NCBI GenBank assembly: GCA_034530875.2
Contig: JAVRCJ020000001.1
Location: forward strand, 256,001-320,000
Direction of reading: 5' to 3'
Length of the DNA: 64,000 nt
From: Nostoc sp. DedSLP01
Lineage (GTDB): Bacteria; Cyanobacteriota; Cyanobacteriia; Cyanobacteriales; Nostocaceae
This document shows positions 46,794 through 61,931 of this stretch, one piece after another. How positions within the stretch are numbered: position 1 is the first letter of the stretch; the number at the start of each line of letters is the position of its first letter. A model generated the notes under the pieces. That model was given only the letters and a program-made list of their open reading frames with translations. It made no database searches and was not told the DNA's origin. The translations under genes and the position numbers were made by a program.

Positions 46794-46932
46794 AAATACT
46801 TTTCCTCTATTTAATTGGCATTCCTGATGAGAGGCACACCCTACCTTTAAGGTTTGGTAAGATATCCGAAAATAAGAGTACGCACGTTGTAGTCATTAAA
46901 TAAAATCTTAATAGAATTTACCCTTGGGCATC

Positions 46933-48627
46933 ATGCAGGTCTATTGCAGCAAACAACACACAAACGATAATGGCAACCGCTTTTGTACCCTTTGCGGCGA
47001 ACCATTACCTCTTGCTGTGGGACAGGTTATAAATAATCGCTATCAAATCATACGTCAACTAGGACAGGGCGGCTTTGGACGCACCTATTTGGCGGAGGAT
47101 AAGAAATCCCATCAAACCTGCGTGTTGAAAGAATTTGCACCCCAAGTACAAGAAAAACAAGATTTACAAAAAGCTAGAGAGTTATTTGAGCGAGAAGCCA
47201 ATGTCCTCAAAAAACTCCACCATTCCCAAATTCCGCGTTTTCACAGTTCGCTACAAGTGAAAATAGGCACGAAAGATTTTTTCTTTTTAGTCCAAGATTA
47301 TGTAGATGGCGAGAATTTTGACCAATTATTAGAACAGCGTCGCAGTCAGGGAAAAACCTTTACTGAAGAGGAAGTAATTACCCTACTGCAACAGATTTTA
47401 CCTGTAGTATCGTACATTCACTCGCGGGATGTAGTTCACCGCGATATCTCTCCTGATAATTTAATTTGGCGGCGTTCTGATAATCTCCCAGTTTTGATTG
47501 ATTTTGGTGGCGTTAAACAATTGCCGGCTTCTCAAGGTTTTTGGCGGACTCAGTTAGTTGAGAATAATACTTTACTCGGTAAAAAAGGTTATGCTCCAGA
47601 GGAACAATTGCGGCAAGGTCAAGTATTTTTTAGTAGTGATTTATACTCTTTGGCTGTAACCGTATTGGTATTGCTGACGGGGCAAGAACCGCAAAAATTA
47701 TACGACAGCTATCAAGGACTTTGGTATTGGGGCAAGCAAATTCAGGTGAGTCCTAAACTTGAGTCTGTGTTAAAAAAGATGCTGGCTTATAAACCGAGCG
47801 ATCGCTACCAACGAGCCGAGCAGATCCTCAAAGATTTACCATCGCCAAATGCAACCAAACCCGCGCCTAATTATGTTACCAAGATTAAGACGATGGTAGT
47901 TGCTCCCGGAAAACAACGCGCCAGTGCTATTATCAGTAAATTCCAAAATAGAACCCAAGCCATTGCTAAACCCGCATCTTTCCCCGTTTGGATTCGTCCT
48001 TTTGTGATGAGCCTTGGCGGTACAGCTTTAGTTGTTTTAACTGGCGCAGGTGCTTGGGCAGTAGTAAATGCAGTCATTCGCAGCGTATCATCAATTACGA
48101 TTCCATCTATTTCCTTACCGCAAATTCCCCAGTTTCCCAATCCTAGCAATCAACCAGTCAGCAAGGGAGGTACAAATCGCAACCTCCAAGAAATTATCAA
48201 TCGCCGCCAACAGTTACAAATTCCCGAAGTATTTTTTACCCGGTTTGTAGACGAGTTATTTTATACAAAAAATTCCCAATTAAAGGGACGTAGCTTGACA
48301 TCAAAACCCGAAGATGCACGTTTACGAGATGAGTGGTACGGTATCGCTGACGATTTGTTGAAGAAATTAGAACAAGCTAACATCAGTACAGCAGCGCGTC
48401 GCAAACTCGGAAGTTACACTGCACAAGATTACGAAAGATGGAGACGACAAACGCAAGCCGGAGAATTCGGAGACTATACAATCGATCGCTTGAACAAAGA
48501 AACAAATGAAAAATTCGATCGCTTGTTTCCCGGCCAAGACCGTGCGAAACTCGATCAACAAACTTTCGGTCAAATTTGGTATGCGATCGCTGCCGATCGA
48601 ATAGATAAAGTAAAATCTGGCAAGTAA
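46933..48627 (+). CDS. membrane Ser/Thr protein kinase with N-terminal zinc ribbon
   Basis: C..H...FCTLCG, LGQGGFG, HRDISPDN, DFG, YAPEE, transmembrane helix. Confidence 0.95.
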   Translation: MQVYCSKQHTNDNGNRFCTLCGEPLPLAVGQVINNRYQIIRQLGQGGFGRTYLAEDKKSHQTCVLKEFAPQVQEKQDLQKARELFEREANVLKKLHHSQIPRFHSSLQVKIGTKDFFFLVQDYVDGENFDQLLEQRRSQGKTFTEEEVITLLQQILPVVSYIHSRDVVHRDISPDNLIWRRSDNLPVLIDFGGVKQLPASQGFWRTQLVENNTLLGKKGYAPEEQLRQGQVFFSSDLYSLAVTVLVLLTGQEPQKLYDSYQGLWYWGKQIQVSPKLESVLKKMLAYKPSDRYQRAEQILKDLPSPNATKPAPNYVTKIKTMVVAPGKQRASAIISKFQNRTQAIAKPASFPVWIRPFVMSLGGTALVVLTGAGAWAVVNAVIRSVSSITIPSISLPQIPQFPNPSNQPVSKGGTNRNLQEIINRRQQLQIPEVFFTRFVDELFYTKNSQLKGRSLTSKPEDARLRDEWYGIADDLLKKLEQANISTAARRKLGSYTAQDYERWRRQTQAGEFGDYTIDRLNKETNEKFDRLFPGQDRAKLDQQTFGQIWYAIAADRIDKVKSGK

Positions 48628-48748
48628 TGGGAGATGGGGAAGTGTGGGGAGTGTGGGGAGTGTGGGGGGAAAGAGAATTTATGCCTCCCTATCTTCCCAC
48701 ACCTCCCACACCTCCCACACCTTCCCATCCCCAATGCCCTATATCTAA

Positions 48749-50914
48749 ATGACTAAACTATATTGTTCTCAGGGACATGAAAATTCCCCAGGTAGTCGCT
48801 TTTGTCTCCAGTGTGGTGAGAAGTTGGATACGCCCATGAATTATGGTATACAAGCAGGAGTAACTTTAGGCGATCGCTATGCGATCCTGCGTCAACTCGG
48901 TCAAGGTGGCTTTGGACGCACTTATTTAGCTGAAGATATTAACCGTTTCCGCGAACTTTGTGTTTTAAAGGAATTTTCTCCCCAAGTTCAAACCGCTTAC
49001 GTTGTCGAAAAAGCTCAAGAACTTTTTGAAAGAGAAGCGAGTGTTCTCTATCAACTACAACATCCCCAAATTCCCCGCTTCCGCGAACTGCTTCGCATTA
49101 ACTTACAGGGCAGAGAATATCTGTTTTTAGTGCAAGATTATGTAGAAGGCGAAACTTATAACTCTTTGCTAAATGACAGGAAAAGGCAAGGTTTGCGCTT
49201 TACAGAAGCTGAAGTGCGCCAATTATTGCAGCAAATTTTGCCAGTGTTGGAGTACATCCACTCACTAGGCGTAATTCATCGAGATATTTCTCCAGATAAC
49301 TTAATACACCGTAAGGTTGACCAACTACCAGTATTAATTGATTTTGGTGGTGTCAAACAAGTAGTAGCAACAGTAGCTTCCCAATATTATCAACCCGGTG
49401 CTATTGGATCTTCGCCATCACCAACCCTATTGGGTAAAATCGGATTCGCTCCCCCAGAACAGATGCAAACTGGCTTGGTATCTCCCCACAGCGATTTGTA
49501 TGCTTTGGCAGCGACAATGTTGGTTTTACTGACAGGCAAGCTACCCCAAGAATTAATTGATACTTATAATCTCACCTGGCAATGGCGGCGAGAAATCAGC
49601 CTGAGTCCGCTTTTAGGACAAGTATTAGATAAAATGCTATCTGCCAGACCAGGCGATCGCTATCAATCAGCCCGTCAAGTCCTCCAAGCCCTCAGTTCTC
49701 CTCCAGTCAGCTATCCGGCTACTCAATATCCCACTCCCACCCCACCAGAACCCACATCCGCCACCATCGCCGTCTCCCCTCCACCCCCCTCATCTCCCCA
49801 TCTCCCCATCTCCCCATCTCCTTCATCTCCTCAATGGACGCCAACCAAAACCTTATTAGCGGCACTGGCAGCAATTGGTACAGCTGGATTAATTTTCTGG
49901 GCAGTCAATAGCAACCGCAAGCCAGAGGGAGTTGAACCGAACCCTACACCCAGCCCAACCGCAACCAGCAGCCAGCCAGTCGATCCCTTAGCCCAATACT
50001 CCCCAGAAGAACGCCAGCGCAAACAAAGATTAAGCGATCGCCGCCAACAGTTGGGTATTGACGAGGGGTTCTATGTAAACTTGGTAAATCAATTTTTTTG
50101 GGACAAAAATCCCAGTTTACGGGGACGTACTCTCAGCAACGGTGTGGAAGATGAGAGTTTGCGGGCACAATGGGATGGAACAGCTTCAGAATTGCTAGAA
50201 AAGCTGGCAACACTGAGTTCAGCTTCCCGCCGACAATTGGGAACTTATACGAGCGCCGAACGCGATCGCTGGAAAGTGGAAGTCAACCGTGTTAATGTTG
50301 GTAGCCGTTCTTTGTACGATTTGGGAGATGCAGCTTTCTTCAGAGTATTCCCAGAGCAACGTGGTAAAAAGTTTGACAAACAACCCATTGCACAAGTTTG
50401 GTATGGATTTGTGAGTGATAAACTCAGTGCCATCCAAGCAGGTAGCGCCTTTGAGAAACTTACCTTCGACCCCGGTGCGACTAGTAAAACAGCCAGCGGT
50501 AGCTTAGAACCTGGCGATGGTAAAGTTTTGATTGCGGAACTTGCCAAAGAACAATCTATGGAATTGAACCTCAAAGCAAATTCCCAAGTTTTGTTATCAG
50601 TTTATTCACCCTCTGGCAAAATCAAATTTTTAGAAGATTCTACCCAGCGGACTTTAGCAAAAAAATTACCAGAAAACGGTTTTTACGAATTTGTTGTCGT
50701 TTCCACAGCATCGAAACCAGTAGATTATCAACTCAGCATCACAGCCGAAACTCCCGCCGTATCCCCAACTCCGACACCGACACCTACAGAAACAGAAACA
50801 CCAACTCCGACACCGACGCCTACAGAAACAGAAACACCAACTCCGACACCAACGCCTACAGAAACTTCTACACCAGAACCTACACCGACGCCTACAGCTG
50901 AGGCTACGCCATAA
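48749..50914 (+). CDS. membrane Ser/Thr protein kinase with zinc ribbon, extracellular domain and PT-repeat tail
   Basis: CSQGH...FCLQCG, LGQGGFG, HRDISPDN, DFG, FAPPE, transmembrane helix, PTPTPTETET repeats. Confidence 0.95.
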   Translation: MTKLYCSQGHENSPGSRFCLQCGEKLDTPMNYGIQAGVTLGDRYAILRQLGQGGFGRTYLAEDINRFRELCVLKEFSPQVQTAYVVEKAQELFEREASVLYQLQHPQIPRFRELLRINLQGREYLFLVQDYVEGETYNSLLNDRKRQGLRFTEAEVRQLLQQILPVLEYIHSLGVIHRDISPDNLIHRKVDQLPVLIDFGGVKQVVATVASQYYQPGAIGSSPSPTLLGKIGFAPPEQMQTGLVSPHSDLYALAATMLVLLTGKLPQELIDTYNLTWQWRREISLSPLLGQVLDKMLSARPGDRYQSARQVLQALSSPPVSYPATQYPTPTPPEPTSATIAVSPPPPSSPHLPISPSPSSPQWTPTKTLLAALAAIGTAGLIFWAVNSNRKPEGVEPNPTPSPTATSSQPVDPLAQYSPEERQRKQRLSDRRQQLGIDEGFYVNLVNQFFWDKNPSLRGRTLSNGVEDESLRAQWDGTASELLEKLATLSSASRRQLGTYTSAERDRWKVEVNRVNVGSRSLYDLGDAAFFRVFPEQRGKKFDKQPIAQVWYGFVSDKLSAIQAGSAFEKLTFDPGATSKTASGSLEPGDGKVLIAELAKEQSMELNLKANSQVLLSVYSPSGKIKFLEDSTQRTLAKKLPENGFYEFVVVSTASKPVDYQLSITAETPAVSPTPTPTPTETETPTPTPTPTETETPTPTPTPTETSTPEPTPTPTAEATP

Positions 50915-51176: not shown

Positions 51177-51596
51177 CTAATTTGAATCAATAACTTGCTT
51201 TCTGGTAGACTTAATCTGTCCTCGCTTAGTTTTACTGTCAAGGCGTCTCTTTTGAGAGTTGCGAGTTGGTTTGGTAGGTTTGCGTTTTCTCTTCAGTACG
51301 ACTGCGCTTTTAATAAGTTCTTGCAATCGTTGCAAAGCCTCCTCTCGGTTTTGCTCTTGAGTGCGGTGTTCTTGAGCCTTGATGACAATGACTCCCTCCT
51401 GGGTAATGCGTCGGTCGTTGAGCTTCAAAAGCTGTTCTTTATAGAAAGCGGGTAGTGATGAACCCTCAATGTCAAAGCGCAAATGAATGGCTGTAGCAAC
51501 TTTATTGACGTTTTGACCCCCTGCGCCTTGGGAGCGAATCGCGCTAATTTCGAGTTCGCTATCGGGGATGATGATTTTGTGAGAAATTTGCAGCAT
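51177..51596 (-). CDS. arfB: alternative ribosome rescue peptidyl-tRNA hydrolase
   Basis: GAGGQNVNKV, RTQEQNREEA, basic tail RKPTKPT...RRL..K. Confidence 0.96.
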   Translation of the reverse strand: MLQISHKIIIPDSELEISAIRSQGAGGQNVNKVATAIHLRFDIEGSSLPAFYKEQLLKLNDRRITQEGVIVIKAQEHRTQEQNREEALQRLQELIKSAVVLKRKRKPTKPTRNSQKRRLDSKTKRGQIKSTRKQVIDSN

Positions 51597-52023: not shown

Positions 52024-52428
52024 ATGGACGCTGCCAAACGCCTTGCTACTCTAAATCGCATCCGCAAACTTAGCCGTTTGATGGATACATCAATACGTAT
52101 ACCTTTGATAGGTTTTCATATTGGAATAGATCCAATTATCGGTTTAGTTCCAGGTGCTGGTGATTTAATCAGTACAGCGTTTTCGGCTTACATCATATTT
52201 TTAGCTACTCGCTTTGGCATCCCACGCCAAGATTTAGCCAAAATGATTTTTAATGTTGGTTTGGAAACAGTCGTGGGTACTGTGCCTTTTGTCGGTGATT
52301 TGTTTGACGCTTTCTACAAGTCTAACATTCGCAATTTAGCAATTTTAGAACAACATTTGACAGTGGTTGAACCAGAACTTAAAGAAGTGTCCGATCGACT
52401 TTACTCTCGTAAGTTCACCGAAGTTTAA
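52024..52428 (+). CDS. DUF4112 family membrane protein
   Basis: LMD..IRIP...IGIDPIIGLVPGAGD; VPFVGDLFD..YKSN.RN. Confidence 0.9.
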   Translation: MDAAKRLATLNRIRKLSRLMDTSIRIPLIGFHIGIDPIIGLVPGAGDLISTAFSAYIIFLATRFGIPRQDLAKMIFNVGLETVVGTVPFVGDLFDAFYKSNIRNLAILEQHLTVVEPELKEVSDRLYSRKFTEV

Positions 52429-52510: not shown

Positions 52511-55500
52511 TCACCAAGGATTGCCAATCATTGTAAATCCAGCCCAATAATAAGGATGCATCAGCGATTCATCAGCTTTACCAACACTTTCAGCAGGCAA
52601 AGGCAAGTTACCAACTGCCCCCAAACCTTGAATTTGACCATCCTTGACGAAAATCTGCCCTTTGGCCATAGCTACTTGAGCTTCTCGCAAAGCTTCTGCT
52701 TTAATTGGTGCTGTTTTTAAATTTTCATAAAATTTTGTCATCAATGCTGCTGTACCAGAATCATTAACCGACCAAAGACTAGCAACGCTAGTTTTCACAC
52801 CTGCCAGCACTGCTAAACCCGCAAATCCAAGTTCTGACTCTTGATCGCCTAAAGCTGTCCTACAAGCACTCAGCACCATCATCTCTACTTGGGGATCGTT
52901 TAACCGCAACTGCCGTAACTGGTTCAAACGTAACTTGTCTTCCCACAGTTGAATATAGGAATTACTCAAGCCGCCAGTGACAAAATCGGCATGGGTTGCC
53001 ATGTGAATAATGCCAAAAGGTTGTTGGCGACGGATACTTTTAAGATTTTCTACAGTGGCTTGCTTGTCCAACAATAATTTACCTTGCCAGAGTCTAGATA
53101 CTAATGTTGATATCTCCACGGGAACTGCTGGTAAAGGATCTTGTCCTTGAGTACTCTGAGAAACCCCCAGTGCTAAAATTTGGGATTTTTTAATGTCTGT
53201 ATATAGGGTGTTGGTCAAGCTGAGACTTGGCATCAAGCCTATACTGTATTTTTCTACTAGAAATTGTTTACCATCGTGAAGTGCTGCCATTGGAGTAGAA
53301 CGCAAACCAATGTCTGGTAAAAAGACTAAATTGTTGATTCCTCTGGCTTGTAAATCTGCCTCCAGTGGCTCAATTATCCAGCGATAAAGTTGTTGAGCCG
53401 AACGCAAATAAGCAGTCCGCCGGCGATTTTGCGGACTAACAATCTGGTCGCGAAATTCTTGAGCTACTTGTAATATTTTCGCTCTTGTGGTTTCTCCAAT
53501 GCGCTTACGAATGGGGTCACCTTTTCCAGTAACTACTACTATTTCCAGCTGGTCGCTATCCTGTTGTGTGAGCGTATTCAACTGTTTAGTTTTCTCCGGT
53601 ATAATCTCCACAGGAACAAAACTGATGTAAATAAATGCAGGTTTTACACCAGTAGCCTCCTCAATTTTGCGAGCAATTTGTTTGGCATCATCTAGTGTTT
53701 TAATTTTGGGAGTTGGTATGCCTAAATGCTCGCCAAAATCCTCTGTGAAGCTATCTTCCGGAGTAGGATCGTTATTAATTATGGAGTAACTAATTTTAGG
53801 AACTTCAGGAGCAGGGTTACTTGGTTGATTTGGAATGCACTGAAATGAGCAGGGGGAAGAATTAAGCTCATCAGGAGTTTTAGGCTTATTAGGAGTGCCA
53901 GGGTCAGTGGGAGTGCCAGGGTCAGTGGGAGTGCCAGGGTCAGTGGGAGTGCCAGGGTCAGTGGGAGTGCCAGGGTCGGTGGGAGTTCCAGGGTCGGTGG
54001 GAGTGCCAGGGTCGGTGGGAGTGCCAGGGTCGGTGGGAGTGCCAGGGTCGGTGGGAGTGCCAGGGTCGGTGGGAGTTCCAGGGTCAGTGGGAGTTCCAGG
54101 GTCAGTGGGAGTGCCAGGGTCAGAGGGAAGATCGGGCACTTTGACGTTGATTGCTACCTGTACGGGTTCTGAAGATGAAACTACATCGCTAGCTTTGACA
54201 GTGAATGCATTTATTAGACCTGTGCCATCGGTGGGCGGTGTATATTCTAGTATTTCACCTACAGTTAATTCGTCTCCGGGAGCTAAAACTGTATCGCCTC
54301 GTTTCAAAGTTCCTGCTTGGACGGCATCAAGAAAAACAGTGGTGTTATCTAAATTGACATCGCTAGAGGTAGCAGTAAATTTGAAGCTGACGGTTTGATT
54401 GACTTCGGCATCGGATGAGAGGAGCGTGTTTGTTGTCAGTGTAGGCGGGGTGTTTACGGATGTAATGGTGATGCCGGCTGGGGTGCCAGGAGCATCGCCA
54501 CCATTGGGTAAAACTGGAAAGTTATTTAAAGGAGCGATCGCAGTTGCCCCTGTAGTAATTGACTCTGCTATACCATTGACACTGGCATCACCGATGATAA
54601 AATCTACATTGTTTGGGCCGCCATCATGTCGAATGCTAATAGTACCCCCTGCTAGAGGTTGAACCACAGGCACTCCATCATTCAGAAAAAATCCACCAGT
54701 TGCAATAGTTTCACCCTCACCGTTTCCTAATCCTTGAATTAGGCCGTTAGTTAAGACTTGCACGTTGCCACCTTGAACGCTGTTACCGTCAAAATCGTCA
54801 ACTACGGCTTGAGTGCTGATGGTGGTAAAACGAATATTGCTGCCAGCAGTATTGGTAGTCTGTAAAGTTACGTTACCAGCTGTAACATTTGCAGTTCCAT
54901 CTACTCCAGTAGCGTTCGCAAAAGTATTAATGGCGTCATTCACGGTAATATCATCTGTGGCAGTTAAGGTGACCGCGCCGGCTTGGCCGATAAAATCGCC
55001 ACCTCCTTCCTTGGTTACATACGAGTTAATTGCGCCTGTGGTGATGCTGCCGCTTGTGGTTGTTGCTACTACATCGCCAGCCGTACCTGAATTACTAGCA
55101 CCTTGTGAAAACGAATCAATTGTACCTGTACTGATGTTGCCTGCCGCACTTAAGCTTACTACTCCCGCTGTATTATTAGTCAGAAACCCTTCAGTATTGC
55201 TAGTATCAAGATTATTTAGACTAATGCTAGCACTGGTACTTTGGACTGTAATATTACCTGCCGAGTAACCAAGACCAGTGGTGATAATATTACCAGCAAT
55301 GATATCGCCAACCGCAGACAAGTTGACATTACCACTATTGCCAGAAGCATCATTAATTGTATTGAGATTCCCCAGCGATAAACTAGCTCCAGAAATGTTT
55401 ATTGCCCCTCCCTTGGTTTCAATTGTGTTGGTAAGGTCAACAAAGTTTACAGAACCGTTTTGCGATGTGAGGGTGAAGCTACCGCCACTACCCAAGTTTA

Positions 55501-58024
55501 ATGTAGCAACACCATCGGTTGTTACTAGGGGTGTGGCTCCGATGATGTCATTGATGGTAATATCGCCTGTGGCTTGTAAATTGATATTTGCACCGGAGAG
55601 TGCGATCGCACCCCATGAAACTGTATTCGCCCCAATATCTGCATCGCCAAAAGCAATATTGCCAGCTGTGCCATCAAAAGTCCCTACTCCGCCATCGATA
55701 ATAGTCAAGGTGCTGGGGTCTAGCAATAAAGTCCCGAAGCTACCATTGGCGGCTGAAGTGTCTACCACACCGTTGAAGGTGAAGGCATTTTTGCCGGAGA
55801 CTTCTACAAAACCACCATTGCCAGCATTTGCTCCTCCACGAGCCGAAATGTTACCAAAAAATTGGGTTGTGTTGTCACCCCAAACTATTACCCGTCCGCC
55901 ATTTCCATTTAATTTACTATCGGCATTAATTACGGAGTTGGAGTTAACATAAGTCTGCTGTGCATTGGGCAAAGTCCCCTTACCCTGGTAATCGCCTCCA
56001 ATTAACACGGTACCAGCGTTATTGGTTCCAGAGGCGTTAATATTGACATCGATCGCCCCTACTTTTGTACCTAAAGCAGCTACCGTCCCGCCTGTTTGAC
56101 TTGATAAATTTACTGTCCCAGAAACAATAGTTGTACCTGGAGTTGCCGGGATTTTGACGTTAGAGCCTGTTAGTTGTACCGTTCCATCGGCATTAGCTGT
56201 TAATCCAGTGTTAGTGTTACCAACTGTAAGCAATTCTGGTAAAGATGCAATGGGAATTGTCCAGCTATTGGGTTGGTTGCTACTAGAGGCGAGGGGCTGA
56301 ATTTCCAGACTCAGCAAATTTCCTGGCTGACTCAGGCGCACCCAATTTTGACCCGGTACGGATGTGACGGTAATCTGTCCTCCTGGTGCGGAAATTTGGC
56401 CAGTGTTTACCACCGTACCGCCCAATAAATTCAAATTTTGCCCAGTACCGACTGCCAAATTTCCCGCATTGACAATTGCTCCTGGTTGGCTGGTACTAAA
56501 GGCAAAACCATTGGGGTTTCCCACTAAATTAATGTAGTCATTAACACCTATTGCATTAAACCAACTGCTACCAAAGCCGATTCCTTCCGCTGTTGTCGCC
56601 GTAAAAGCACCGGGTACATTTAAGCTGGCGTTTGCTCCAAAAATAAACCCGGCTGGATTCATCAAGAACAGATTCGGGCTACCACCAGTTACTTGAATTA
56701 AGCCGTTGATGATTGAAGGATCGCCGCCTGTTATTCGACCCAGGATATTTTGTAGCGTGGGATTGGCTTGAAAGTTGGCGATTTGTTCTGGTGAAAGTCC
56801 AAATTGTTGAAAGCTGTGGAAGAGGTTAGCACCATTACCAGAAGTTGTACCGCCGGTGATATCAATTTGGTTGCCGTTGGGAGTTACGATTGTGTTTGTA
56901 CCATCAGCAGCAGGAATAATTTGCTGTGCTTGGGCTAATCTGGGACTGATGGCACTCAATAGTGGCGCAATAATTAGTGCTGAAGCGGCAATACTAGACA
57001 GTAAATATTTTTTCCAAGAAAGCAGAGATTCTGTCAAGAGGTTTGGAGAACAAAGATTTTCGGCGTTGCTGATTGGTGGGATAGTTTTTATCTCACGCAG
57101 AGGCGCAGAGGAGGACACTTCTGTGGGCGGGTTCCCCGACTTGAGGAAAGTGTCCGTCGCGCAGAGAGTAAGAGTTTGAGAAATCAGATTTTTAATTTTC
57201 ATCCCTTTATTCAGCAACGCCAGATTTTCTTTACTAACCTTGCATTGCAGTTTCTCTACCTCTGTTTTGCGCCGCAGGATAAAGCGACCTGTGGGAAATT
57301 CTACATCGATTTGTAATTTATTCGCTAATCCGCGTCGCCAAAGTGCTTGGGCGATCGCCTTTTTTGACCAGAGAATTTGTTCTGTTTTCCTAGCAACAGA
57401 GGTGTTTTGCGAATGATTTCGGTAGAAGTAGAGGGGCTTTTTAACTCGCCGCACTTGGGTAACTTCGGAAAGTCTCAAACACAAATCGTAATCATAAGCA
57501 GTGATATTAAAAGACTCGTTGACTCCTCCCACTCGGTCGTAAACGCAACGGCGCATGAGGCGGAAGTGAAAAGTCATGAAGTTGACTAAAAGACTTTCTC
57601 TTGAGTAGGGAATCTCACAGCGATGACCGTAACCGAGAACTTTGCCATCTGCATCGATGTTTAGGTAGTCAGTGTAAACGAGTCCCGTTTCTGGATAGCG
57701 ATTAAGGACTGCGGCGGTTTCGGCCAGGGCGGTAGGTGCGAGGAGATCGTCGTTGTCAAGTATACCGATGTAACTACCACTAGTTTGGTTAATCGCTGCC
57801 TTACAAGCCGCAGCAGTTCCTTGATGCCGTGCTTGGATTACCCGCACTCGTGCATCTTTTTGAGCATATTGTTTTGCTATGGTGGCTGAACCATCTGTAG
57901 ATCCATCGTCCCAAATTAGTAGCTCCAAATCTTGCCATGTCTGCGCTAAGACACTGGCGATCGCTTGTTCAAGGTAAGCTTCCCGATTGTAATTGACGAT
58001 GACAATGGAAATCAGTGGTGGCAT
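52511..58024 (-). CDS. fusion protein: GT2 glycosyltransferase - internal signal-like helix - TPS/filamentous haemagglutinin passenger - PTDPGT repeats - CHAT peptidase
   Basis: GT2 (YNRE.YL, DDGSTD, LDNDD); haemagglutination-activity domain ([14 protein letters not shown]); [12 protein letters not shown] dyad (HMATHA, LSACRT) and HPYYWAGF. Confidence 0.9.
53895..54121 (-). repeat. 13 x 18-bp tandem repeat encoding (PT)DPGT
   Basis: GT(G/T)CCAGGGTC(A/G)GTGGGA units at 18-bp spacing. Confidence 0.95.
57062..57221. mobile_element. 160-bp MITE inserted in frame in the fusion gene
   Basis: Terminal inverted repeats GGCGTTGCTGA / TCAGCAACGCC; perfect 8-bp target-site duplication AGATTTTC (57054-57061, 57222-57229). 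Confidence 0.9.
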
Positions 58025-58357
58025 CGAAGTAATCCAAGTTTTCTACCTGTTACCAGGATATAATGCTAAGGGCTTTCACTTAGGTAATCATTGCTGTTTA
58101 TTATTTTTTAGTTACAAATTTTCTTAAATTGAAAGAGCAAAAATATGATATTCAAATACCTATAGTATGAGAGTGACTGGGGACTGGGGATTGGGGACTG
58201 GGGTATGGGGTACTGTTAGAAACCCGACGTATAAATGCAAGAACCGTATAAATTGCCCTAATAATCTGGCCGGCTAAGTACCTTGAGTATTAAGCGAATC
58301 TTTCCTAATTCTCAGTCCCCAATCACCAGCCCCGAGAACCCTAAAAAGCACAAAGCA

Positions 58358-60202
58358 ATGATCGAAGGAACAGAAACTCGTGTCACGAAAGCAAGGACTC
58401 AGCCAAGAAGTGTCTATCTATCTCATCAGTTAGACGCTTGGCAAAGTCTGGCAAATAGGAAATGGAATCAGCACAGTTTCAGTTTCAAGTGTGGCTTGTT
58501 AATTCTGCCTGCACTCTGGATTGTAACTGCCGATGCACTGAAAGCTACAGCTAATAACTTTATACCAAACTCAAATCGAGATAGCAGTTACCCAGAGTTA
58601 CAAATCGTACAGGAAACACCTTCAGCTGCTAGCGAACCGAATCAACCACAACCAAACCCCGAATCATCCCCACCGCAACCAGAAACACCACAACGCATTC
58701 GAGTCCGCAAAATCCAAGTTATAGATAGCACGGTTTTTAGTGAAAATGACTTGAATGCAGTTGTCAAGCCGTTTGAAGAACGAGACTTGACTTTAGAAGA
58801 AATCAGACAAGCCGCAGATGCAGTTACCCAGCTTTATTTAAATAAAGGCTACCTCAATTCCAGAGCCGTTCCAGACACTCAACAACTTAGCACCGCTGAT
58901 GGAATTGTCGTCATTCGTGTAATTGAAGGCAGTTTAGCAGACATAGAGATTGAAGGAACGCGGCGATTAAACCAATCTTATATTCGCAGTCGCATCGAAT
59001 TAGGTGCTGGTACTCCTCTGAATATTGGTAAGTTGGAAGACCAACTAAGGCTATTGCGACTCGATCCCCTGTTGGCAAATGTCGAAGCACGTCTGCGTCC
59101 TACAGGTAAAGTTGGGCAAAGTGTTTTAGTTGTGAGAGTTGAAGAGGCAAATCCTTTAACTGGTAGCTTGGGTGTGGATAATTATTCGCCTCCCGCTATT
59201 GGTGCAGAAAGATTGGGTGTTGAATTGGGCTATCGCAACTTAACTGGAATGGGAGATGAGTTAGCAGGATCTTATTTTCACACCTTGAATGGTGGTTCCG
59301 ATTTTTTTAATTTTAGGTATCAGATTCCAGTTAATGCTATGGATGGCAGGGTGCAGATTAGAGCTGCATTTAGTCGTAACGAAATCACTCAAAAACCCTT
59401 CGATGCGTTCGACATTCAAGCAAATCAGGATCTTTATGAAATCAATTATCGCCAACCATTGATCCGATCGCCGAGAGAAGAATTTGCCTTATCTTTAGGA
59501 TTTACCTATCAAAACGGTCAAACTTTTATCTTCAATAACATTGCCCAGCCTTTTGGTATCGGGCCAGATGCTAATGGAGTCAGCCGTACCAGCGTCATTA
59601 AGTTTGCTCAAGATTATGTTAAGCGCGAACCCCAAGGTGCTTGGTTTTTGCGATCGCAATTTAATTTTGGCATTGATGTCTTTGATGCCACAATCAACAA
59701 TGACCCCATACCGGATGGTCGCTTTTTCAGTTGGCTAGGTCAAATACAACGCGCACAGCGACTCAGCAACGACCAATTATTAATTATCCAAGCAGAGTTA
59801 CAGCTAACACCAGATAGCCTTTTACCTTCCCAGCAATTCGTGATTGGTGGCGGACAATCTGTGAGAGGATATCGCCAGAATGCCCGTTCGGGAGATAATG
59901 GATTTCGGTTCGGGATTGAAGATAGAATCACAATGCAGCGCAATGAATCTGGTTTATCCACCGTTCAACTAGCACCATTTGTTGATATGGGAGCTGTCTG
60001 GAATAAGTCAAATAATCCCAATCAGCTACCAAACCAAACTTTTCTGATTGGCGCAGGCTTAGGATTATTGTGGAATGAAGCCTTTGGCATTGATAATTTA
60101 AATTTACGACTCGATTATGGTTTTCCATTTATCGATCTGAGCGATCGCGGTAATAACGCTCAAGATGATGGCTTTTATTTTAGCGTCCGGTATCAGCCGT
60201 AA
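58358..60202 (+). CDS. ShlB/FhaC/HecB family two-partner secretion transporter (TpsB); ORF open from 58283
   Basis: POTRA motif TQLYLNKGYLNSRA; barrel motif GG.SVRGY; C-terminal FYFSVRY. Confidence 0.93.
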   Translation: MIEGTETRVTKARTQPRSVYLSHQLDAWQSLANRKWNQHSFSFKCGLLILPALWIVTADALKATANNFIPNSNRDSSYPELQIVQETPSAASEPNQPQPNPESSPPQPETPQRIRVRKIQVIDSTVFSENDLNAVVKPFEERDLTLEEIRQAADAVTQLYLNKGYLNSRAVPDTQQLSTADGIVVIRVIEGSLADIEIEGTRRLNQSYIRSRIELGAGTPLNIGKLEDQLRLLRLDPLLANVEARLRPTGKVGQSVLVVRVEEANPLTGSLGVDNYSPPAIGAERLGVELGYRNLTGMGDELAGSYFHTLNGGSDFFNFRYQIPVNAMDGRVQIRAAFSRNEITQKPFDAFDIQANQDLYEINYRQPLIRSPREEFALSLGFTYQNGQTFIFNNIAQPFGIGPDANGVSRTSVIKFAQDYVKREPQGAWFLRSQFNFGIDVFDATINNDPIPDGRFFSWLGQIQRAQRLSNDQLLIIQAELQLTPDSLLPSQQFVIGGGQSVRGYRQNARSGDNGFRFGIEDRITMQRNESGLSTVQLAPFVDMGAVWNKSNNPNQLPNQTFLIGAGLGLLWNEAFGIDNLNLRLDYGFPFIDLSDRGNNAQDDGFYFSVRYQP

Positions 60203-60238
60203 TGCAGTTGTGGAAGGTATAGTAGCATCCTCTATTTC

Positions 60239-60349
60239 GGCGTTGGTGATTGAAAATATGAATTGAATTCACGCAGAGGCGCAGAGTCGCAGAGAGTAAG
60301 AGTTGAGAAGAGTTGATTTTTGAATTTCGTATTCAAATTCAGCAACGCC
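60239..60349. mobile_element. 111-bp MITE, same family as 57062-57221
   Basis: GGCGTTGGTGA / TCAGCAACGCC ends; shared CACGCAGAGGCGCAGAG...GCAGAGAGTAAGAGTT core. Confidence 0.8.
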
Positions 60350-60353
60350 CTAT

Positions 60354-61931
60354 TTTCTAATCTTTAATAGGGATTTTGGTGAATTGCAATATTGTGGCAA
60401 TAATTGGGAATCTGCCTGTAGGAAATTTTCAATAAACTTATTACAAAAATCGTTCTTTGCGTTCTCTTCTCTGCGCCTCTGCGCCTCTGCGTGAGATAAA
60501 AAAATATTTATGCAAGAGGTCTAATTCCTAATAGGAATTTTGGAGAATTGCAATAGGAGATCTCTCTCTCTACAGTCTCCCCACTGGGCTGTTTCAATCC
60601 CTAATAGGGATTTTGGAGAATTGCAATGTGAAGTGGTTTTGATTTGTAAAAACGACCAACTTATGTTTCAATCCCTAATAGGGATTTTGGAGAATTGCAA
60701 TATTAGTCGGTTGGAGAGGCTAACGCCTCAGTGGTATGTTTCAATCCCTAATAGGGATTTTGGAGAATTGCAATATAAAATCAGAAAGTACTTCTAATTT
60801 CAAGCTTCAGTTTCAATCCCTAATAGGGATTTTGGAGAATTGCAATTCTATTGCCGCAGGCATGGGAATGCACCTACACGGGCTAAGTTTCAATCCCTAA
60901 TAGGGATTTTGGAGAATTGCAATGCTGATTTGCCCAAGAGAGCGCCGTTGAATCACAAGTTTCAATCCCTAATAGGGATTTTGGAGAATTGCAATCCTTA
61001 TTACGTTATCTGAGTATTTAGTAAAAGAGGTTTCAATCCCTAATAGGGATTTTGGAGAATTGCAATTAAGCATTGCCAATGGCGTTTGCGGGCATTTGGT
61101 GCGTTTCAATCCCTAATAGGGATTTTGGAGAATTGCAATGCTAGGAAAGAATTGGAATATTGCCTGCAATATTGGTTTCAATCCCTAATAGGGATTTTGG
61201 AGAATTGCAATAAATGTGCTTTTGCCTGTAGTAAAGATGAGACTAGTTTCAATCCCTAATAGGGATTTTGGAGAATTGCAATCTTTTCTAGCTCAAAGGC
61301 AAGAAGTAAGGCGAGAGTTTCAATCCCTAATAGGGATTTTGGAGAATTGCAATGTGCTGTAGCGCAAGATTGTAGCTCGTGTTTCGGTTTCAATCCCTAA
61401 TAGGGATTTTGGAGAATTGCAATTTGATTTGCATCTTCACAGTACTGGGAATAAACCAGCTTTTGTTTCAATCCCTAATAGGGATTTTGGAGAATTGCAA
61501 TCAAGGTAGATAATGGTGTACTGAGCGATTATATGTTTCAATCCCTAATAGGGATTTTGGAGAATTGCAATGTAGCTATTAGCTATTAACTGGTAGCTGT
61601 TAAGCGGTTTCAATCCCTAATAGGGATTTTGGAGAATTGCAATATGTAGACTTATTAATCTCAGGTTCACCTTGCCAAGTTTCAATCCCTAATAGGGATT
61701 TTGGAGAATTGCAATGCTTTTTTATCTGCGGGGATGATTTCGTCCCCCCTGTTTCAATCCCTAATAGGGATTTTGGAGAATTGCAATGCCAATGATGTAG
61801 GCAATCCAATACCCGTCAATGGGTTTCAATCCCTAATAGGGATTTTGGAGAATTGCAATGAAAGAATTAGAATTGATGATGCGTTTCAATTTTTGTTTCA
61901 ATCCCTAATAGGGATTTTGGAGAATTGCAAT
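60354..61931 (-). CRISPR. CRISPR array, type I-D-like repeat; 19 intact repeats (60591-61931) + 2 degenerate, 20 spacers
   Basis: 37-bp repeat GTTTCAATCCCTAATAGGGATTTTGGAGAATTGCAAT. On the minus strand it ends ATTGAAAC; degenerate copies on the left imply the leader is on the right. Confidence 0.98.
60433..60523. mobile_element. MITE-like insertion splitting a CRISPR repeat
   Basis: TTTTCAAT | insert ending TGCAAGAGGTCTA | ATTCCTAATAGGAATTTTGGAGAATTGCAAT; internal CTCTGCGC repeats. Confidence 0.7.

Follow-up and report, generated by a model that had tools for sequence, protein, structure and literature searches.

TpsA proteins, the exoproteins of two-partner secretion (TPS; type Vb secretion), normally start with an N-terminal Sec signal. 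In Bradyrhizobium FbcH, a single gene yields a precursor from which cleavage at an internal signal releases cytochromes b and c1; to our knowledge, few polyproteins of bacteria are processed by signal peptidase. In the HMW1A/B/C system of Haemophilus influenzae, a cytoplasmic glycosyltransferase is tied to the locus, HMW1C adding hexoses to Asn, and in FhaB and autotransporters with extended signal peptides an N-terminal extension delays export (PMC5422565). We have analyzed a 64,000-nucleotide stretch of the genome of Nostoc sp. DedSLP01 (the window; contig JAVRCJ020000001.1, positions 256,001 to 320,000), in which one gene joins a glycosyltransferase domain of family GT2 to an internal Sec-type signal, a TPS domain, a passenger and a CHAT domain. 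The gene very probably directs the synthesis of a single precursor that is cleaved at the internal signal, with GT2 left behind and the passenger and CHAT domain exported, presumably by way of TpsB. The features of the locus are as follows, coordinates being those of the window and residue numbers those of the 1837-aa query protein.

52511..58024, minus strand: precursor gene, 1837 aa, in the order GT2, linker, internal signal, TPS, passenger, Pro/Thr linker and CHAT (open reading frame [ORF] and Pfam; orthologue of Npun_R1218/B2IXC0)
57266..58024, minus strand: GT2 domain, aa 1-253, GT-A fold (motifs D90-x-D92-D93, FHFR 152-155, DYD 178-180 and R202/H204; matches K4 chondroitin polymerase 430-682)
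57058..57232, no strand assigned: dispersed ~175-bp repeat with short inverted ends, a strain-specific in-frame insertion in the linker
56927..57013, minus strand: internal Sec-type signal, aa 338-366 (KK, hydrophobic core 341-359, AQA cleavage motif)
56318..56905, minus strand: TPS secretion domain, aa 374-569 (Pfam, NCBIfam and PDB match)
54122..56317, minus strand: passenger rich in Asn, Thr, Ser and Gly, aa 570-1301, presumed β-helix
53888..54121, minus strand: 13 DPGTPT-type repeats, aa 1302-1379, variable among strains
53837..53851, minus strand: C-x3-C pair, aa 1392-1396, preceding CHAT, likely a disulfide
52520..53404, minus strand: CHAT caspase-like domain, aa 1541-1835, with H1678 and C1721 (Pfam and alignments)
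58025..58357, no strand assigned: region between the two divergent genes, with short tandem repeats rich in G (sequence scan)
58283..60202, plus strand: tpsB, POTRA and ShlB barrel (Pfam; likely start ATG 58358)

The locus resembles HMW1A/B/C in its TPS domain, its TpsB partner and its locus-tied glycosyltransferase. HMW1C, however, is a separate protein; here the precursor opens with a GT2 of the sugar-on-sugar kind and has its signal in the interior, its passenger finishes with CHAT, and tpsB is transcribed divergently. The HMW1C family is, we assume, GT41; no enzyme of that family was found at the locus, the domain being GT2 with a GT-A fold. Judged by its sequence, the fusion departs from HMW1A/B/C in two defining features, having a signal that is not N-terminal and an enzyme that is not of the HMW1C family. 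It differs from the extensions of FhaB and autotransporters in that the extension is a folded 250-aa enzyme, and from FbcH, which is likewise cut at an internal signal, in that both products of FbcH are membrane proteins belonging to a single complex. The query shares its TPS subfamily, the composition of its passenger and its CHAT motifs with unfused TpsA-CHAT proteins and tpsA/TPR-CHAT pairs of cyanobacteria, but these start with an ordinary signal peptide and lack a GT2 of this clade in the stretches examined. Searches of the open literature (subscription journals and bioRxiv supplements excepted) turned up no publication that deals with the fusion or the gene, and the accessible portions of PMC3482391, PMC10811720, PMC10936207, PMC13389171 and PMC9746966 do not describe the fusion; databases already list the domains.

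The frame translates from end to end without an internal stop, and Pfam recognized Glycos_transf_2 at residues 6-164 (6e-30), the TPS domain at 374-569 (9e-41) and CHAT at 1541-1835 (1e-74), in agreement with an earlier note that had read the locus as one uninterrupted 1837-aa ORF running from GT2 to CHAT. The TPS domain (PF05860; TIGR01901 also scored above its cut-off) opens the predicted mature exoprotein, and its best PDB match was 2odl (E 2.5e-6), which we take to be the HMW1 secretion domain. The N-terminal Sec signal expected of a TpsA was not found; the signal lies at residues 338-366, behind the folded GT2. The note's description of this segment as signal-like held up as well: residues 341-359 (Kyte–Doolittle hydropathy 2.17) are the most hydrophobic 19-mer of the protein, with KK before them and LAQA-QQI after them, the predicted cut falling between LAQA and QQI. 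Among 129 fusions a hydrophobic signal was present in 126 and AxA-Q in 126.

Evidence on how the precursor is processed comes from Nostoc punctiforme PCC 73102, whose orthologue Npun_R1218 (B2IXC0) adjoins Npun_F1219 and is 77% identical in GT2 and 82% identical in CHAT. Npun_R1218 received no SignalP call and is marked "secreted: No" (PMC11890772); predictors call the precursor non-secreted, and exoproteome studies therefore miss it, although no other haemagglutinin row is as strong, either in cells (12.3-12.8, compared with 4.3-9.9 for the rest) or in medium (PMC11890772). Data Set S1 of PMC12188702 contains 16 B2IXC0 peptides from filtered hormogonium medium, all of them located after the signal. 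An in silico digest of B2IXC0 gave 38 peptides of 7-30 aa, equal to the intensity-based absolute quantification (iBAQ) count in the file; of these, as matched by eye, the medium contained 0 of 12 from GT2, 5 of 8 from the TPS/helix part and 10 of 18 from the CHAT side, together with one missed cleavage (PMC12188702). The absence of GT2 peptides has a hypergeometric p of 5e-4, assuming equal detectability, and residues 254-530 yield no peptide of detectable size. RbcL, PGK, EF-Tu, AtpA and soluble glycosyltransferases also occur in that medium file; SecY does not (PMC12188702). Since the passenger was in the medium without GT2 even though soluble cytoplasmic proteins had leaked, cleavage with GT2 membrane-held or degraded fits best. 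The Npun_R1218 peptides thus fit one precursor cut into two proteins with GT2 left behind, and they lend support to that part of the note's proposal which kept GT2 inside and had the passenger cleaved and exported; the accompanying idea that the passenger is glycosylated in cis found no such support. TpsB and the precursor were detected together in N. punctiforme proteomes (PMC11890772, PMC12188702), and the accessible supplement text of PMC11424642 (EXCRETE) has no row for the gene. After hormogonium induction the Npun_R1218 transcript fell from 127 to 21-32, with a smaller drop without sigJ or sigC, and the tpsB transcript stayed steady at 66-84 in the same experiment (PMC6495340). We infer a role in sessile vegetative filaments.

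Is the fusion a peculiarity of this strain? All of the best 120 homologues (1010-3215 aa; named sources Nostoc, Anabaena, Calothrix, Scytonema, Pleurocapsa and Leptolyngbyaceae) carried both PF00535 and PF05860. A homologue search of this kind is blind to split forms, and we therefore examined genomes. GT2 and TPS were in one open frame in 28 of 36 congeners and split in none, the orthologue being missing with this query in the other 8. Across the order, the GT2 clade was present in 91 of 401 genomes, with 113 matches, 54 of which (by our count) lay in frames of at least 1000 aa. Examination of 35 of these long frames revealed 31 GT2-signal-TPS fusions and four multi-domain glycosyltransferases; in one sample of long frames, 20 of 20 were fusions. 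No TPS gene was found within 4 kb of a TPS-free clade GT2 at any of 55 loci. Among the best 150 representatives at 50% identity, the clade domain reached at least 250 bits in 63, and TPS was also present in 33. The fusions that the note had suspected in other Nostocales are widespread and reach far beyond that order, and the predominance of split homologues that it named as a possible refutation is not what the congeners exhibit.

The junction between GT2 and signal was open in 31 of 31 loci that could be parsed, despite varied insertions (the pattern did not parse 8 of 39 loci). In most Nostoc, the last GT2 strand runs directly into the basic residues of the signal (RFILRRKK) and then into the hydrophobic core. 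The ratio of nonsynonymous to synonymous substitution rates was 0.17 for GT2 and 0.09 for TPS; GT2 is under purifying selection and its active site is intact. TPS+CHAT genes without GT2, with an ordinary signal at the start, are common, 34 of 40 other loci having at least one of them, complete or truncated; the special part of the query is thus the GT2-signal cassette only. Fused and unfused labels required two changes on the GT2 tree and five on the TPS tree, and a single clade of fused TPS domains was weakly rejected (approximately unbiased [AU] test, p=0.037, with 10 of 71 rows left out). Passengers have probably been exchanged behind one GT2-signal cassette, and a single origin of the GT2 fusion is compatible with the trees. 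On these comparisons we regard the fusion as an old, retained arrangement. Variants were also seen: the gene is in two frames between helix and CHAT at L094:2-5286 and L159:3856-8733, with GT2, signal and TPS still joined; P0187, P0104 and P0002 are fusions with a second, internal TPS domain; and P0051 has two tandem clade GT2 domains.

Other accounts of the precursor have to be weighed against cleavage at the internal signal. That the read-through is an artefact of assembly or of a repeat insertion has a negligible chance of being right and is already refuted by the relatives. The 85-aa linker does contain a mobile element, residues ~265-323 deriving from the ~175-bp dispersed repeat (up to 31 overlapping matches in the genome; one full copy, 89.5% alike), and although the contigs of four sequencing runs show no indel in the gene, all of them break at the repeat (57120-57191) and none crosses it; this DNA may itself derive from three of the runs; the only fixed difference at the repeat, at 57134, is synonymous in the frame as we read it. 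We credit the open frame to the relatives and not to the run contigs: the 120 best homologues all carry both domains, and 28 congeners are fused without this insertion. The repeat was inserted in frame, with stops in both alternative frames, and the GT2-signal junction in other strains took several different in-frame insertions; in this strain the linker between GT2 and signal is mostly a repeat insertion, GT2 elsewhere usually abutting the signal. A TTG in the Leu243 or Leu250 column could serve as an internal start, immediately ahead of the basic residues, and account for most of the passenger, with the long form a minor product; we consider this unlikely. Such a start would yield a textbook signal peptide, TTG occupies the two columns in 21 and 20, respectively, of 31 junctions, and the medium peptides are compatible with it too. 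The TTG shares, 0.68 and 0.65, are nonetheless below the median Leu codon conservation of 0.74 (39 columns); column 250, part of the final strand of the fold, has Leu in all 121 proteins, with no case of Met; both TTGs are missing in this genome and some others; no Shine-Dalgarno-like site was found there; and GT2 would still be without a stop. Slightly less probable again is a signal that escapes cleavage and serves as an anchor: GT2 would remain inside, the passenger would sit in the periplasm or at the surface, and the fragments in the medium would arise by later proteolysis, perhaps by CHAT. In monoculture Npun_R1218 stood at 12.3-12.5 in cell extract against 12.6-13.3 in medium, while five other haemagglutinin rows rose from 4.3-9.9 in cells to 8.4-12.6 in medium, on scales that differ between the files (PMC11890772), and the peptide-free interval between residues 254 and 530 would suit an anchor; a passenger held at the surface accounts equally well for the cell signal, however, and the AxA-Q kept in 126 of 129 fusions argues for a cut. 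Cleavage with GT2 left behind has weaknesses of its own. Presence in the medium is no proof of secretion, since cells had leaked and TpsB was present too (PMC12188702); no cell-fraction proteome with peptide lists was found in the literature searched; and tpsB, divergent at 15 of 22 fused loci, was missing from the examined stretch at the other seven.

What might the GT2 do? Its nearest solved relative is the C-terminal (A2) domain of Escherichia coli K4 chondroitin polymerase (E 1e-38 by sequence); a profile search gave chondroitin synthase at E 2.5e-76, the next best being 5e-33. The model of the domain (predicted local distance difference test [pLDDT] 94) matched residues 430-682 of the polymerase over 247 aligned residues (Z 31.5, root-mean-square deviation 1.8 Å, 32% identity). 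D90, D92, D93, F154, R155, Y179, R202 and H204 are invariant in 121 homologues, and the GT-A fold with DxD and a matching pocket extends across the whole domain. On these grounds we read GT2 as a probably active UDP-sugar transferase that depends on metal and resembles domain A2 of chondroitin polymerase. The likeness to A2 (PDB 2z86/2z87) includes DSD 519-521, corresponding to D90-x-D92, and D469, corresponding to D40; the query GT2 differs in being a single domain without a partner N-acetylhexosamine transferase in the chain, in having V and H at the positions of P439 and N496, and in being fused to a signal and an exoprotein. We take the C-terminal domain of the polymerase to be the glucuronic acid transferase. 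The same assignment, with the DSD motif and UDP-glucuronic acid as donor, is made in PMC7826918; a legend in PMC13411425 assigns the two activities in reverse, which tells against a uronic acid donor. With either assignment a sugar is added onto a sugar, and by analogy extension of a primer glycan is a likelier role for the GT2 than the initiation of protein glycosylation. An assignment to the RfbC/flagellin type was dropped after the K4 polymerase sequence and profile matches. An NCBIfam scan of the domain gave no glycosyltransferase model near cut-off, and an ESM Atlas search gave only generic GT2 clusters, below 0.9.

These observations can be assembled into a pathway. GT2 has no stop of its own, and the sequence shows that it is always made joined to the signal and passenger. 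It would fold in the cytoplasm, the internal signal would engage Sec, and signal peptidase would cut after AQA. The TPS-passenger-CHAT part would then leave the cell, as the orthologue peptides suggest, presumably by the TpsB route, GT2 staying behind, probably held at the inner membrane by the cut signal. Before export, GT2 would extend a primer sugar, placed by a separate enzyme such as a GT41, by one further sugar, in all likelihood a uronic acid, acting on a few sites of the passenger, in the Pro/Thr linker or the long Asn/Thr stretches. The product would be a surface protein of sessile vegetative filaments, with CHAT trimming or releasing it or a neighbour.

Relatives of the GT2 outside the fusion bear on its target. 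Free clade members are fused to other glycosyltransferases, sulfotransferases, TPR or DUF4915, and at L171 and L175 clade GT2, GT41 and TPR are in one protein; this genome has two GT41 genes, both elsewhere. A large RTX/Calx-beta, CARDB, cadherin, FG-GAP or RHS exoprotein, of N/T/S/G/D-rich composition, flanks 18 of 55 free loci, compared with 2 of 24 other GT2 genes of this genome (Fisher p=0.025, with a one-genome control and kin that are not independent). In seven proteins (L061:1185-2378, L062:7891-9084, L064:8048-9250, L143:7526-8659, L145:7498-8670, L147:3563-4909 and P0189) the same GT2 is followed by a signal and then a short non-TPS tail with a GYGYG-type motif, so that the cassette carries a second cargo. 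The tail is 100-170 aa long, has the motif E-x-I/V-G-x-GYG...GYGY and lies downstream of large multi-glycosyltransferase genes; the product may be a glycopeptide that is exported and synthesized together with the enzyme that modifies it. Other arrangements were encountered alongside. DUF4915 (TIGR03032), a family that no paper in the literature searched was found to name, occurs in fusions with TPR, GT2 and GT41, next to genes for FG-GAP/Calx-beta exoproteins (L171:5786-9901, L175:5085-9791, L173:1364-4495 and G000:C23:59171-62227). Clade GT2 genes, as well as GT2-sulfotransferase fusions, recur near RHS and vanadium-haloperoxidase-like genes (L058, L059, L060, L142, L149, L150, L152, L155, L156, L160 and L163). 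A YcaO cluster at L057:7384-8130 has a free clade GT2 immediately behind HlyD and an ABC exporter of the peptidase-C39 kind; this GT2 may glycosylate a ribosomal peptide.

If the precursor is made, cut and exported as proposed, the chance that the passenger is the target of GT2 is about even; that GT2 extends a primer glycan on its own passenger falls, overall, a little short of that. Several results tell against it. The passengers of 9 fused clusters did not differ from those of 26 unfused ones in sequon density or in Ser, Thr and Asn composition (p>0.37 throughout; a mixed cluster of 125 was left out), and the query passenger has an observed-to-expected sequon ratio of 0.84. Five helix peptides, of which two carry N-x-S/T and are Ser/Thr-rich, were identified unmodified, and helix detection (5/8) was no lower than that of CHAT (10/18); two other sequon peptides were not seen, and most of the passenger is invisible to trypsin (PMC12188702). 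As the helix peptides are unmodified and were detected as well as those of CHAT, blanket glycosylation like that of HMW1 is unlikely; glycosylation of a few sites, or of the trypsin-invisible long stretches and the Pro/Thr linker, is possible. In addition, no large exoprotein is nearby at 37 of the 55 free loci, and one free locus adjoins an exosortase/Wza/Wzc cluster. By itself the GT2 domain is unlikely to make the protein self-glycosylating in the sense of the note, its closest solved relative adding sugar to sugar. An appreciably less probable account, though one to be taken seriously, keeps the same two-protein precursor and has GT2 act at the inner membrane on a lipid-linked or a sheath or exopolysaccharide glycan, the fusion anchoring the enzyme and tying matrix synthesis to a surface protein. 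It would explain why the nearest solved relative is a polysaccharide polymerase domain, why passenger peptides are unmodified and no compositional signature exists, why passengers were swapped behind GT2 with no special one needed, and why free relatives occur in multi-glycosyltransferase proteins and in one exopolysaccharide cluster. Weighing on the other side, no conserved polysaccharide export or polymerase gene was found beside the fused loci, free relatives lack an anchor and so the enzyme needs none, and the links to GT41 and large exoproteins count against it, as does the reuse of the cassette for a second exported cargo. Extension of a glycan on the passenger could be one instance of a broader scheme, which we put forward tentatively, as a doubtful proposition: a portable cassette of enzyme and internal signal in which a glucuronyltransferase-like GT2 leads, modifies the cargo and is cut off by signal peptidase, with priming by GT41, capping by sulfotransferases in some lineages, acidic glycosaminoglycan-like glycans as products, and several TpsA-CHAT passengers and the GYGYG peptide as cargoes.

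The arrangement matters in that a modifying enzyme leading a type Vb passenger breaks the rule that a TpsA begins with its own signal. The gene is available in a tractable strain (Npun_R1218, beside F1219), its expression falls as filaments turn motile and public mass-spectrometry data exist for it, and processing, cis glycosylation and the role of an extracellular caspase-like protease are thereby directly testable.

The exported part was as the note had described it in most respects. H1678 and C1721, which we assume to be the catalytic pair of CHAT, are each kept in 119 of 121 homologues and in 44 of 44 rows of a wider alignment, and the residue following the His is Ala in 120 and Gly in 7 of 129. 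By family assignment the domain is a PF12770 caspase-like peptidase with intact His and Cys; searches of PDB by sequence and by profile gave no matches for it, and self-release of the passenger by CHAT is a guess. The C-x3-C pair before CHAT, likely a disulfide, is present in 113 of 129 fused and 0 of 34 unfused proteins, the fused set being mostly close Nostoc kin. The note's count of 13 Pro/Thr repeats was correct (DPGTP ×13, aa 1302-1379), but the array itself is strain-specific: at least four PGTPTD-type motifs occur in only 2 of 129 fused proteins, whereas a Pro-rich linker occurs in 101 of 129. Its TPS domain is secure and its β-helix is presumed from TPS homology only, residues 601-1298 having no Pfam match (a sole cadherin-like match near aa 1185-1239 was non-significant) and a single-sequence fold of residues 1-600 having pLDDT 37, with the TPS/helix part below 50. 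Exported CHAT proteases are, as predicted from gene content, a wider cyanobacterial theme: 7 of 14 other TPS genes of this genome are near a CHAT gene. These seven (G000 contigs C16, C21, C34, C40, C53, C61 and C62) are near TPR-CHAT genes whose products open with signal-like segments.

The divergent TpsB gene reported by the note is a frame with POTRA_2/POTRA and ShlB domains on the opposite strand (58283-60202, plus), whose start is probably ATG 58358, giving 614 aa (nearest congeners 604-628 aa). Promoter and terminator scans of the intergenic region were at chance level only, with 15 promoter-like matches in 58025..58357 against 13.2 expected. Genes neighbouring the locus are not conserved at related loci. 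At lower coordinates of the window (46924-50914, 51177-51596 and 52024-52428) are a pair of Ser/Thr kinases in tandem, of which the second ends in a Pro/Thr/Glu tail, a gene with an RF-1 domain (ArfB-like), and DUF4112. Just downstream of tpsB, at 60591-61931, is a clustered regularly interspaced short palindromic repeat (CRISPR) array of 19 CRISPR-DR5 repeats; it looks like an orphan here, the sole cas1 of the genome being on another contig. Parts or copies of the repeat family found in the linker (57058-57232) also occur at 60235-60358 and 60466-60509, where they flank the CRISPR leader.

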